From the sequence record MZ956761.1: a stretch of DNA of 64,000 nucleotides, one strand, 5' to 3'. Source of the DNA: a phage. The notes under the pieces are model-generated. The model searched no databases. It saw nothing but the letters and a program-made list of their open reading frames with translations, and was not told the origin of the DNA. The stretch's first letter is position 1; each line of letters begins with the position of its first letter. Both the position numbers and the translations under genes were made by a program. Positions 51,783-61,901 of this stretch are shown piece by piece.

Positions 51783-51941
51783 ATGAATATCGCAAAATTA
51801 TTAGGAGTTATTTCATTTATTTGTTGGATAGTAGCATGTGTTTTAACTATCTGTATCGATGCTAGCAGTGTGTTTTCACAAGCTTTAGCNCAGGGTATGT
51901 GTNNATATTTNANNTTTGTGTTGTTATCTNCTAATGNTTAA
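51783..51941 (+). CDS. hypothetical membrane protein, 3' end obscured by N run
   Basis: ATG 51783 with GAGGAG RBS; stop position uncertain. Confidence 0.25.
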   Translation: MNIAKLLGVISFICWIVACVLTICIDASSVFSQALXQGMCXYXXFVLLSXNX

Positions 51942-52041
51942 GAAAATCTTNGGCTANTCANTANCCCNTGCTACTTTANTGGTAGCACTANANTANGGAG
52001 TAANGNTCNGANTAANTCAAGTCGTGCNTTTCATTTCNGAN
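51890..52041. other. run of ambiguous bases (N) upstream of gene 52
   Basis: Scattered N characters. Confidence 0.95.
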
Positions 52042-56408: not shown

Positions 56409-57065
56409 TTATTTAGCCCTTCCTAATATTCTGGCCGCCTGAGCACATATTGATTCAAGGCGGTCATTACTTATATGATCATTTCTATACCAGTACATGG
56501 TTATCGTTCCAGCATAGATATTATCCAAATTAAAATATGGACAACTGTACATGTAGTTTATTTCGGGAGTAGGCTTTTTAGTTGGTAAAAAAGCAAATTT
56601 TGAGTCAGAATAATAATGACGTCCATTTAAATGAACTGTATATTCATCCATAGTTTTATCAACAGGATATCCTCCAAGTGATTTTTCAGTTATTGTTGAA
56701 GGTAATCTTCCTTCGTATGCTATAATATCAACAAAATAGTTTAAGTTTTTAGGGCGGAAAGAATACACCGCACTAAAGTCTGCCTCAGATGATATATGAA
56801 CTATCTGGAGTTGTTCCAGGGCGACAGATTCAAAGCGTGCATTTCTTTCCTTTTCAATAATTTCACTGTATGTTTCATACTTTGATTGCTTATAGTACTC
56901 AAAGAAACTATCTCCCCTATACCAAACAATCGCCATCATAAATAAAAGAATTACGACAGCTACCCGGGAAGCAAGAACATTCCCGGTAGCGTTATCTTTG
57001 AACAAGCGATCTAGAACACCAAACAGAATATCAGAGGGCGAAAATGATATTCTAGGTGCTGCCAT
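56409..57065 (-). CDS. t: holin T
   Basis: 218 aa; N-terminal TM segment then large periplasmic domain; follows gene 38 on the - strand. Confidence 0.85.
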   Translation of the reverse strand: MAAPRISFSPSDILFGVLDRLFKDNATGNVLASRVAVVILLFMMAIVWYRGDSFFEYYKQSKYETYSEIIEKERNARFESVALEQLQIVHISSEADFSAVYSFRPKNLNYFVDIIAYEGRLPSTITEKSLGGYPVDKTMDEYTVHLNGRHYYSDSKFAFLPTKKPTPEINYMYSCPYFNLDNIYAGTITMYWYRNDHISNDRLESICAQAARILGRAK

Positions 57066-57095
57066 AGACCCTCCTTTTAAGGATATTTATTCAAA

Positions 57096-57887
57096 TTATA
57101 CTCTTGCACCATATATTGTACCAACTTTAGTCCAAGTTGGAGCATTACCAGTAACAGCTTTACCTGCTGCGCCACCCGAGTGAACAGTTCCTCCAGTACC
57201 ACCTTGAATATATGAAGATTTGCCCGCAGCCCCCAAATCTCCACCATCTCCTCCATGGTGAACCCCAGAAACAGTACCTTTACCAGGAGCAGAAATTGTA
57301 GCGGCAGATGCTGCCGCTGCGCCGCCGCCTGCTGCACCCGCTGCACCAAATGGACGACCTCCGCCGCCACCAAATATCATATCCATCTGGGGGAAAGGAT
57401 GATATCTAGCACCAGCGCCACCACCACCTCCACCACCGATAATACCATTATTGTTTATTCTTAAACGAGTTCCAATTCCGTTATTTATTGCAGTTCCTCC
57501 TGCTCCACCAGCAGAGTTACTTCCGCCATTTCCTCCTCGACCCAATACATGAACACCACTATTAATATTTAAGGTAACATATGCATTAGTTAATGAGCTA
57601 GGAAAATCTAAGCATGGTTGACCTGTCGATGAAGAAACGATATTGCCTGTAATAGTAATAACAACAGGAGTACTTCCTTGGGCTTTTATCCAATTTATTA
57701 GTGTGTCTTTATTATAAGAATTGCTAGCACCAATGCTGTAATATACTTCTTTAGATTGTCCGGCCATTGAGCTCATCCAACCAGGAACTGAAACACGAAC
57801 TGCTCTCATCGCAGCATCCATCCAGCGTTGTCCAGTTTCATTCACGGCAGATTCACCAATCCAGCCAGGAACACCTACAATTGCCAT
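57096..57887 (-). CDS. 38: tail-fibre adhesin gp38 (T2-type, glycine-rich motifs)
   Basis: 263 aa; poly-Gly/Ala blocks (GGGGGGGAGA, GGGGRPFGAAGAAGGGAAA) separated by variable segments. Confidence 0.8.
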   Translation of the reverse strand: MAIVGVPGWIGESAVNETGQRWMDAAMRAVRVSVPGWMSSMAGQSKEVYYSIGASNSYNKDTLINWIKAQGSTPVVITITGNIVSSSTGQPCLDFPSSLTNAYVTLNINSGVHVLGRGGNGGSNSAGGAGGTAINNGIGTRLRINNNGIIGGGGGGGAGARYHPFPQMDMIFGGGGGRPFGAAGAAGGGAAAASAATISAPGKGTVSGVHHGGDGGDLGAAGKSSYIQGGTGGTVHSGGAAGKAVTGNAPTWTKVGTIYGARV

Positions 57888-57898
57888 TAAAAATCCTT

Positions 57899-57916
57899 AG
57901 AGGGCCGAAGCCCTCT
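57899..57916 (-). promoter_or_regulatory. UUCG-loop hairpin between genes 37 and 38
   Basis: On - strand AGAGGGC-TTCG-GCCCTCT directly before the gp38 RBS; no U tract. Confidence 0.45.
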
Positions 57917-57917
57917 T

Positions 57918-60900
57918 TTACATAAGTTTAGATTCGAGTTCTTTTACACGAGAAGAAAGTGTTTTCACAGCTTCAACCAGAAGAGCAATCTGGGCTTGAG
58001 AAGAAACAGTGAGTATTTTATTACCCTTGCTATCTTCTGTTTCATGGACGGCTTCTGGTAAAACGTCTTGCAACGTTTGAGCTATAATACCCGCTTCGGT
58101 TTGAACAGGTTCACCGCCTATATATTCAGCTTTGTCATAGATTAAACCATCAAGTTGCTCAACCCTTTCGAGCGCATTTTTAATAGGTTTAAAATTAGAT
58201 TTCAAGCGAACATCAGAACGAATATAAACGTTAGGAGCATTGACGTTTTTCTCGGAATAAACTTCACTTGAGGTGAATCTAACAACTTTAACGTTGTTCG
58301 CCCACGCTTCTAAAAGCCCATCGCCTACTTGTCTAAAACCAGTATCACTATCACCAATTGCAATGGAGTTACCACCCCAACCGTTGGAGGTATTTACACC
58401 AAATGCTCTCGCAGATCCGCATGATAGTATAGGAGCATAAAATGTTCCGTCCATATCAAAAGTCCAACGAGCCTGTTGCCCCGATGGGTTGTCGCCACGC
58501 ATGCGAATAATACCTTGACGCCAAGTACCAGAAACACCTAACCATCCAAATTCAAATGATTGACGATAGCCCGCGTCAGTTAAAAAACTGTATCCAGAAA
58601 ATAGCGGGTAATAAGCTTGACTTGTCTTGGAAATGCCACCCGTATTCGCTAAGAATGCAGAATTGTCGCGAGTCACATCTGAAATAGCAGAAAAGCTAAC
58701 ACTCCATTGTCCGGCAGCTTTAACTCGTGAATTAATGTTTCCATTAATAGTAATATCTTTATCAAAAGAAGTATTTTCGCCAAGACGAACAGTACCAGCA
58801 GTCATATCGATTGAAAACGGTCGTTTTCCATTCCAATCGCCTTCAGTTGCTTTATTATCGCCGTCTGAAGAGTTTTTGTCAGTCAGTAAAATATAGAAGT
58901 TTCCACCGTCATTTCGAAATAAAACGGAATTAGAACCTGATCTATCAGAATTACTCGTAATACGAATACCGGTTTGGTTATTAATAGCAATTTCCGACTC
59001 TGCTACATAACGCTTAGAACCATTAGGCGTTTTTTGCAAGTTGTTAAGAACACTAGCAACCTGTCCTTGAATAGCCGTCTCAGGAAGTTCAACCGCAGTT
59101 TCTGTTGCACCCGGTTGGTCCGTTGCAAATACCTGGTTAATGGTAGCATTAGGAGTAGCATAATAAGAAACTGCTAGCGCTTGAGCATAAGTACCAACGT
59201 TTACATAGATGTCATAAACATCGCCTGATGTATTAACCGTTGCAACATTCTTAATACCCTGATCGGTATCCATCGACCAAACAACAGCGTTAATACCTTT
59301 CGGGTTATTGTTCGAAGTTCTTAAAACAATTTTCGAAGTAACGCATTGGTGTGGGGTGTTGACATTATAGCCATTACCACCAGCAATTTCGAATGTGACG
59401 GTTGAAGTGGATTGTGGCATTGTCACCGTTGCTAATTTGTACCAACCGCCAGTACCTGAATAAGAAACCATTCGGGTATTGACTTTACGATCTAATGTCG
59501 AGTTCAAGTTAGCAAAGTTAGGTAATGAACCACCCGTGATATTACCATCAGTACCAATACGAACATTACCAGCACCTAATTTACCAGGAGAGTAAAAATC
59601 ACCATTTTTATTAAATTCCCAACCTAAATCCTTTATAATTGCGCCAGTAGAACCGCCATCGCCACCTTCGTGATAATGAACTCTAAAGTTACCACCATTA
59701 ATTAAAGTACCAATAGAATAGCAACTATTATTTTGAACGTATCTTTGTTTCACAATAGGAACATAAGTGCTTGTATCGGTTCTATCTATATTCATGTAGA
59801 ACGGAGCACGAACGTTTTCATTATTTTGTGAAGCAAATGAACCTGCACCGGCTGGGCGAACAGCATCAGTACATTCTGCATCAATGTATGCCGACTGACC
59901 TATCTGCATACGGTAATTAGGAGAAATACGACTATGACTAGTAACAACAACAAGTTTGTTATCATTGTCTACAGTAATCATATTGCCGCCTCTGCCATCA
60001 TCGCCTAATGTGACAGAATGACGCATGGTGACTTTACCATCACTTAATGCAATATAGAACGGGCGTAAATTAGAAATACCACCTGATTCACCAACATTCT
60101 GTGGAGTTGGAATAATATAAAGCTTATCTTCAGAACGTCGGAAAATAGCACCGTATTCAGCATTCCAAATTCTTAATGCATCAGCCGTTCCACCAAATTT
60201 AGCTTGTCCGTTTACAGATAATCCATTATTAACATTTAAAGAAGATTCAGTTGTAATAGAACCAGAAGCAACAATACTACCTGAAGTTAATAAACCACCA
60301 TTAACTCGAAATTGAATAGGTCCGACAGTAGAACCTGATCCGGGAGCAACTCGCTGAGAATAAAAATGGTAACCTTGCCCATCTGATACTTCAAAAACTG
60401 TTTCACGGGAACGATCTCCAGATGTGTTAAATGAATTACCCCACGCTTTAACAGTTACATAGCTTTTATTCTGCCCAGCACGCTTACCACCTTCCCACAA
60501 AATTTGCTTAGTGCCGTCAATTGTAGTAGTTGGAGCGAATGTTAGCCCAGCAGTAGAATTATTAGCTGCTAAATATATGCCGTTATATATTGAAAGCTGC
60601 TTAACAGATGTAATACCGCCATCAGCATAAAACATTACATTATTAGAGCCAGTTACTAGTTTAAGAATACCAGGGTTAACTTCCATGCCTTCTTGGGTAT
60701 TAATATTAGTTTTGCCTTTACCACGGAAATAGTGGTTCATTTTTCCGCCTGAGTTATAGCCAATATGTGTCTGACCGTCTCCAGCAGTGTTTTCATCAGC
60801 TTGTGTTTGAACTGATAAAAATGCAGCGTTCGTTCCAGGCATAATCCATGTTGTACCTTGGTCTTCTGAGCGTCCAAATATTGCTTTGCGAGTACTACGG

Positions 60901-61901
60901 AAACTATCAGGTGTAATAGATGCCAAAGATAAACCAGAACCAACAAAATCAAATACGCCGGTTTTTCTATAAACTAGACCAGTTCCATTATCACCTAAAG
61001 CAAGAAATATATTTCCTAGTGCCCCAACATTTCCATAATCGCTTGACGGAAACCCTTGCGTCACAGTACCAATGGCCAAGCTATTGCGAATAATCATTCT
61101 ACCGTCGTTACGAATACCATATAGTTTAAATAACGGTATATTACCAGTCCACCAAGAAACTTCATCAGCCAGGCCTGTTTGGGCAGTAACAATTTCATGA
61201 TAAATTGTACCACCGGACTTAGCGCGAACTTTACGAAGATAGTTTACGCCATTTGTTTCACCGGTTCCAGGATAAACATAGTTAACCAAAGATTGTGAAT
61301 CGTATTGTCCAAATGATTTAGAATCATGATTAATTAAATTAACACTAATAGTTGGTGTACTAATAGAAGTTAAAGCAGTTAATTTGCGTGCCTGGAAGAT
61401 ACCACCATCGGTAGAAATGAAATGAAATTCTGAATTTTGAGCTCCCGCAGCGGTTCCTTGACGAACACGCATTGTAATTACGCCTTCATTTTCAGACTGC
61501 GGTTTTGAATATAAAACGCCACGTTCTGAGCCATTTGTATTTTCAAACCAAAGATGGGCATTTGCAGTATCGTTTGTTGCTCTTGCATAAAATGAACCCT
61601 GTGTAGATCTGAAAACTTTTGCAGTTACGCCATCAGTAGAACCAATAGGTCCATTTATAGTCATTCCACCTGTTTGTACATAATCGCCGTTTAACCTCAA
61701 AAGACCATTGATAGTTACATTTCCATCAATTTGACCGCCTTTAGCAATACCTAGATCAATGATATTTCCTGAATCATCTTTAGTAAAAATTGTTCTATCT
61801 TTTAAGTTTATAGCCAATTCACCTTCGGCTAATACTGAAGCAGCAGGACGTGCACCTGCGGTTTTGCTTCTTTTAAATTGTATTTGTTTTAAAGTAGCCA
61901 T
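57918..61901 (-). CDS. 37: long tail fibre distal subunit gp37
   Basis: 1327 aa, Gly/Ser/Thr/Asn-rich fibre; C-terminal chaperone-like domain. Confidence 0.9.

Follow-up and report, generated by a model that had tools for sequence, protein, structure and literature searches.

The gp38 adhesins of phages such as T2, T6 and S16 have been studied by decades of genetics, and two crystal structures are available, one of S16 gp38 in the complex forming the gp37-gp38 tip (PDB 6F45, chain D) and one of the receptor-binding domain of PP01 gp38 (PDB 9V85). Their design of five glycine motifs (GRMs) and four variable segments (HVSs) was described by Trojet et al. 2011 (PMC3157838), and work with gp38 swaps, point mutants and cross-linking has established that specificity depends on the HVS loops (PMC3157838; PMC12892980; bioRxiv 10.64898/2026.04.02.716166). 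Mutation of Y209 in PP01 abolishes infectivity, and in RB51-type gp38 the exchange Q206L alone, located in HVS3, switches the receptor from OmpF to OmpW (bioRxiv 10.64898/2026.04.02.716166). Closely related gp38s share receptors in published phylogenies (PMC12032242). For one group of alleles that receptor is Tsx: it is listed as the primary receptor of Bas43 (TadeuszReichstein; BASEL S1 table, supplementary file 5), AV114 and AV115 were "shown to recognize Tsx" (PMC10844046), and a tsx deletion mutant is not infected by KIT06 (PMC11274021). The paper on phage ADUt names as hosts E. coli (BL21 and DH10B among the strains), S. flexneri and S. dysenteriae; a search of it for data on the receptor or the tail fiber yielded host range only, and no receptor experiment was found for SA20RB or RP1 either.

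The window analyzed here, 64,000 nt of phage DNA (sequence record MZ956761.1), carries gene 38 of a Tequatrovirus, which, with a probability estimated at roughly 0.85, encodes a receptor-recognizing gp38 adhesin of the T2/T6/S16 family with Tsx as its most likely receptor. Its gp38 belongs to this family, has the architecture of the family and lies in the corresponding gene context. The protein as such is already known; its sequence is public, close relatives have been characterized, and it does not depart from the family.

Gene 38, its neighbors and the intergenic junctions

The genes 37, 38 and t follow one another on the minus strand, with the elements listed below.

57918..61901, minus strand, gene 37, distal long-tail-fiber subunit of the T2 type, 1327 aa (phrog_1699)
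57899..57916, minus strand, hairpin at the gp37/gp38 junction, AGAGGGC-UUCG-GCCCUCU, with a 7-bp stem and a UUCG tetraloop
57096..57887, minus strand, gene 38, 263-aa adhesin, ATG at 57887 and stop codon at 57096-57098
56409..57065, minus strand, gene t, holin of 218 aa (PF11031, 4.4e-116), immediately downstream of gene 38

The gp37 ORF ends 30 nt upstream of gene 38 and the gene t ORF lies 30 nt downstream of it; the order 37-38-t is the canonical one, found also in T2, T6, T4, S16, Bas43 and AV115. An earlier note on this DNA had described a gp38 of 263 residues with glycine/alanine blocks separated by variable segments, which is confirmed by the ORF, by its composition (60 Gly and 32 Ala) and by the entropy profile given below; no strand was named in that note, and the gene is on the minus strand. 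In the C-terminal 148 residues glycine accounts for one third (49/148, 33%). At the DNA level, GC content peaks at 0.56 in gene 38 over a background of approximately 0.35, and the GC skew of the plus strand is strongly negative, which is what runs of GGN codons on the minus strand should produce. Two further ORFs overlying gene 38, one on the plus strand (57255-57464) and one in another frame of the minus strand (57077-57373), encode 69 and 98 aa rich in Cys/Ala/Thr or Leu/Gln/Val; they were dismissed as by-products of the GC-rich runs of GGN codons, because they lie wholly within gene 38, for which the evidence from homology is overwhelming.

Across 24 kb around gene 38 the window and phage ADUt (OQ466432.1) are 99.9% identical, and the window's gp38 is 100% identical to the ADUt protein WFG41952.1; an identical protein is also on record for the Shigella phage RP1 MAG. 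Of the window's bases, 98 are ambiguous ("n") and fall into two clusters, one from about 15207 onward (spanning roughly 300 bases) and one at 51890-52041, immediately upstream of the topoisomerase ORF (gene 52); since the GenBank record of ADUt has ordinary bases at these places, they belong to the window's copy of the sequence.

The hairpin at the gp37/gp38 junction precedes an SD sequence, AAGGA (57894-57898), which is followed by the ATG of gene 38. It folds with -13.4 kcal/mol and, in a 56-nt context, is modestly more stable than shuffled sequence (z = -1.78); T2 and AV115 have exactly this hairpin, Bas43 keeps its stem and loop, and in T4, T6 and S16 the 37/38 junction has another sequence that nevertheless pairs. 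It is this conservation across phages, and not the z-score, which argues that the hairpin is real. It resembles the classical CUUCGG intercistronic hairpin of T4, and several GGGCTTCGGCCC elements of a similar kind stand behind other genes of the window. The spacer between gene 38 and gene t (57066-57095) reads, on the minus strand, TTTGAATAAATATCCTTAAAAGGAGGGTCT. At this place T4 has TATAAATA, overlapping the stop codon of gene 38, and the window, T2 and Bas43 have GAATAAATA; the GAATAAATA element is a putative late promoter, of variant form, for the holin gene.

Family membership and the partner gp37

Two gene products of very different nature bear the name gp38. If the product of the window's gene were of the T4 type, it would be an assembly chaperone absent from the virion, and receptor recognition would reside in gp37 itself. 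Such a reading is favored only by GenBank labels and by the shared gene name and position: gene 38 of ADUt (OQ466432.1, 71079-71870) is labeled "tail assembly protein", as are the genes of AV114, AV115, vB_Eco_Geo and TB37, and those of SA20RB and RB18 are labeled "distal long tail fiber assembly catalyst". Direct comparison has already refuted it at the sequence level. The window's gp38 has no similarity to T4 gp38 (183 aa; best BLASTP E = 13), but matches T2 gp38 with E = 7e-78 and 63% identity overall. T4 gp38 belongs to phrog_105 ("tail fiber assembly"), is also matched by phrogs 7290 and 1807, and has no Pfam match, hence no GP38 domain; the window's gp38 matches none of these three PHROG families and falls instead into phrog_2056 ("tail fiber protein; host specificity", 7e-101). 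It matches the Pfam family GP38 (PF05268) over its full length (positions 1-218 of 218) with 1.3e-68 and 231.6 bits, and Gp38_N (PF21721) in residues 1-42 with 8.2e-18 and 64.6 bits, the cut-off being 25 bits in both cases; an NCBIfam scan gave no family match. Among proteins of known structure it matches S16 gp38 (6F45_D) with 3.4e-47 and the PP01 receptor-binding domain (9V85) with 1.5e-30. A search of 5.8 billion proteins yielded 172 gp38 homologs, and nearly all of the 120 matches listed contain both Pfam domains.

The predicted fold points the same way. An AlphaFold2 model built from 88 homologs has a mean pLDDT of 93.1 and a pTM of 0.87, with beta strands at residues 48-115 (pLDDT 91-98). 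In a Foldseek search of the PDB the best match of the model was 6F45_D (E 7.9e-23, TM 0.78/0.82), followed by 9V85 (TM 0.74/0.88); there was no significant match to the PDB beyond these two, the next having E > 4. Thus, gp38 is predicted to consist of an attachment domain, a beta-helix and a polyglycine-II sandwich, as in 6F45 chain D, and this fold of the S16 and PP01 adhesins is a further point against a T4-type chaperone.

The gp37 encoded directly upstream of gene 38 has a chaperone domain of the self-cleaving type at its end.

57921..58217, minus strand, C-terminal intramolecular chaperone (S74) of gp37, residues 1229-1327, starting with SDVRLK (PF13884, 1.6e-13)
58218..58511, minus strand, distal tip of gp37, residues 1131-1228, predicted to bind the N-terminal domain of gp38

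The Peptidase_S74 match itself spans residues 1229-1286, and the domain comprises the last 99 residues, which are predicted to be cleaved off. The domain is 87% identical to the C-terminus of T2 gp37, and the gp37 C-terminus has a further match in the tip of S16 gp37 (6F45_A, 4.8e-09); it has no similarity to the needle tip of T4 gp37, which is rich in His, so that the partner protein, too, lacks the T4 feature and has that of T2. Taken with the fold and the direct comparison of the two gp38 proteins, this makes a T4-type chaperone exceedingly improbable. The earlier note, which had read the protein as a T2-type adhesin and not a T4 chaperone, and had named homology to T4 gp38 as what would overturn that reading, is therefore supported by Pfam, PHROG, structures and gp37 partner alike, including the alignments with T2 and S16 gp38 it had proposed. 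The names taken from the T4 type are wrong for T2-type adhesins in ADUt, AV109, AV114, AV115, SA20RB, RB18 and other phages, and their correction concerns a common mis-annotation.

The gp37 tip (1131-1228) is 97% identical to that of the Mosigvirus AV115, 80% to that of Bas43, 64% to that of T2 and 41% to that of S16. Tip and chaperone domain together (57918-58511) are 92-97% identical to AV115 and gp38 is 97% identical, whereas the N-terminal 900 residues of gp37 share 41-50% identity with AV115; gp37 tip and gp38 thus seem to be a cassette moving between Tequatrovirus and Mosigvirus. Another observation on gp37 concerns residues 451-632 (60006-60551), which match the C-terminal trimerization domain of gp34 (PF21446, 4.4e-13; PDB 4UXE, 2.4e-17), and a weaker second copy of this domain is found near residues 995-1069; the gp34-type trimerization domain is common to different fiber subunits, the proximal gp34 and the distal gp37.

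From the S16 complex, the cross-linking work on PP01 and gp38-swap genetics we infer both the location of gp38 in the virion and the contacts of its loops with the receptor. In such a scenario, gp37 would trimerize with the aid of its C-terminal S74 domain, which would then cleave itself off near R1228/S1229; one gp38 per long tail fiber would be placed at the distal end, its N-terminal ~45 residues docking on the exposed tip of the gp37 trimer. The remainder of gp38 would form a small beta-helix and, from the five glycine motifs, a sandwich of polyglycine-II helices, with the HVS loops at the distal face binding the extracellular loops of Tsx, a beta-barrel protein of the outer membrane. Reversible binding by gp38 would be the first step of adsorption and would lead to rearrangement of the baseplate and, subsequently, to irreversible binding of the short fibers to LPS.

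Glycine motifs, variable segments and the predicted receptor

Variability along gp38 was determined as per-column entropy from a MAFFT alignment of 92 family members. Most tblastn alignments against the phage collection stop at residue 114, the glycine runs being masked by the low-complexity filter; tblastn identity bands consequently refer to the N-terminal half of gp38 only, and explicit MAFFT alignments were used instead. All of the following segments lie on the minus strand.

57762..57887, minus strand, N-terminal attachment domain, residues 1-42 (PF21721), predicted from S16 6F45 to dock on the gp37 trimer tip
57543..57749, minus strand, N-terminal part of the beta-helix domain, residues 47-115, in the AlphaFold2 model, aligning to 6F45_D and 9V85
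57522..57542, minus strand, GRM1, residues 116-122 (GRGGNGG), mean entropy 0.39 bits
57438..57521, minus strand, HVS1, residues 123-150, mean entropy 1.02 bits
57414..57437, minus strand, GRM2, residues 151-158 (GGGGGGGA), mean entropy 0.19 bits
57372..57413, minus strand, HVS2, residues 159-172 (GARYHPFPQMDMIF), mean entropy 2.68 bits, carrying PFPQM
57345..57371, minus strand, GRM3, residues 173-181 (GGGGGRPFG), mean entropy 0.24 bits
57255..57344, minus strand, HVS3, residues 182-211, mean entropy 2.06 bits, with A196 and H211
57222..57254, minus strand, GRM4, residues 212-222 (GGDGGDLGAAG), mean entropy 0.93 bits, with D214
57177..57221, minus strand, HVS4, residues 223-237, mean entropy 2.19 bits
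57099..57176, minus strand, GRM5 and conserved C-terminal end, residues 238-263, mean entropy 0.7-0.9 bits

Across the 92 homologs the GRMs are conserved (0.2-0.9 bits; GRM5 proper, residues 238-247, has a mean of 0.72 bits) and HVS2-4 are hypervariable (2.1-2.7 bits), while HVS1 varies only moderately among these sequences. Every indel column of the specificity domain (residues 116-263) falls between glycine blocks; in HVS1 such columns follow residues 122, 125 and 128, and the largest indel hot-spot is in HVS4, after residue 226. With this entropy profile, gp38 shows the five GRMs and four HVSs that define the described design. The proposal, made in the earlier note, that the segments between the glycine blocks set receptor specificity accords with published genetics and structures (PMC3157838; PMC12892980; bioRxiv 10.64898/2026.04.02.716166). 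The loop definitions of the PP01 crystal structure (PMC12892980), carried over through a HMMER sequence alignment, predict five receptor loops in the window's gp38.

residues 122-127, predicted receptor loop A, from the alignment with PP01 loop A
residues 162-171 (YHPFPQMDMI), predicted receptor loop B, from the alignment with PP01 loop B, within HVS2
residues 185-190, predicted receptor loop C, from the PP01 alignment, within HVS3
residues 206-210, predicted receptor loop D, from the PP01 alignment, within HVS3
residues 228-234, predicted receptor loop E, from the alignment with PP01 loop E, within HVS4

The window's gp38 falls into a 90%-identity cluster of 81 sequences which also contains those of Bas43, AV114/AV115 and KIT06, and within the specificity domain it differs from these at 4-5 positions. 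Over HVS2-4 it shares 95-97% identity with Bas43 and AV114/115, all of which use Tsx, and the value then falls to 42% for JK38 (Tsx), 37% for T6 (Tsx), 20% for M1 (OmpA), 19% for S16 (OmpC) and 8% for T2 (FadL/OmpF); given this last value, T2 is not a model for the receptor of the window's gp38. Taken one by one, HVS1 and HVS2 are 100% identical to those of Bas43 and AV114/115 (HVS2 is 7% identical to T2), HVS3 is 93% identical to that of the Tsx-verified alleles, and HVS4 is 100% identical to AV114/115 and 0% to T2. The motif PF(P/S)QM in HVS2 is present in 7 of 120 cluster representatives among the matches listed, and all seven carriers belong to the RB18/Bas43-like or the T6-like groups, T6 and JK38 being users of Tsx. 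The near-identity to adhesins tested as Tsx-dependent and the shared PF(P/S)QM motif together predict that the primary receptor of this allele is most likely the E. coli nucleoside channel Tsx. For ADUt such a prediction is useful in the composition of cocktails that combine phages with different receptors.

The Tsx-verified relatives all have G196, Y211 and N214, while the window's allele has A196, H211 and D214, a combination common to ADUt, SA20RB, the RP1 MAG and a single metagenomic sequence; the specificity domain of SA20RB is exactly that of the window's gp38. It is conceivable that these three residues shift or broaden the choice of receptor, either to another porin (e.g., OmpA, OmpF or OmpW) or to other variants of Tsx. 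In a sequence alignment H210 and H211 correspond to Y209 and Y210 of PP01 at the end of loop D, so that H211, which differs from all Tsx-verified relatives, adjoins the equivalent of the PP01 residue Tyr209; the step from RB51 to RB68 by Q206L is a precedent for a switch by one residue in HVS3 (bioRxiv 10.64898/2026.04.02.716166), and changes of a few residues in HVS2/3 broaden T6-like adhesins (PST; PMC3157838). Against a shift stand the free variation of positions 196, 211 and 214 across the family (H, Y, T and N occur at 211; A, N, S and D at 214), the identity of HVS2 and HVS4 to AV114/115, and the use of the same receptor by related gp38s in phylogenies (PMC12032242). A changed receptor is thus considered unlikely and Tsx is kept as the predicted one. 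Were the shift true, the sub-allele would be a natural receptor switch by few residues, resembling that of RB51/RB68; as they lie near a likely contact loop, A196/H211/D214 are in any case candidate substitutions for the tuning of host range.

Comparison with described gp38 proteins

With T4 gp38 the window's protein has only the gene name and the place between gene 37 and gene t in common; the T4 protein is unrelated in sequence, has 183 aa, belongs to another PHROG family and is not an adhesin. S16 gp38 (6F45 chain D) and the PP01 gp38 receptor-binding domain (9V85), both specific for OmpC, have the same three-part fold as the AlphaFold2 model (TM 0.74-0.88), and their glycine motifs align with those of the window's gp38 at 40-48% identity; their loops, however, have other sequences and lengths, and their receptor is a different one.

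T2 gp38 is alike in family and length (262 versus 263 aa), with 98% identity over the attachment domain (residues 1-46) and 77% over residues 1-115, but differs in HVS2-4 (8%) and in its receptor, FadL/OmpF. The term "T2-type" of the earlier note thus holds for the family and for the N-terminal scaffold, and does not extend to the specificity segments. T6 and JK38 gp38 share with the window's gp38 the family, the predicted receptor Tsx and the PF(P/S)QM motif; as their HVS2-4 are 37-42% identical to it, the window's gp38 represents a Tsx-binding allele group distinct from T6/JK38, and the N-terminal half of T6 gp38 is divergent as well (45%).

Closest are the gp38 proteins of Bas43, AV114/AV115, KIT06, RB18, Kha5h and slur07, which have 263 aa, are 96-97% identical and are encoded in the same 37-38-t context. 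HVS1, HVS2 and all glycine motifs of this cluster are identical to those of the window's gp38 except for one residue in GRM4; apart from A196/H211/D214 in place of G/Y/N, the window's gp38 has A261, where these relatives mostly have S.
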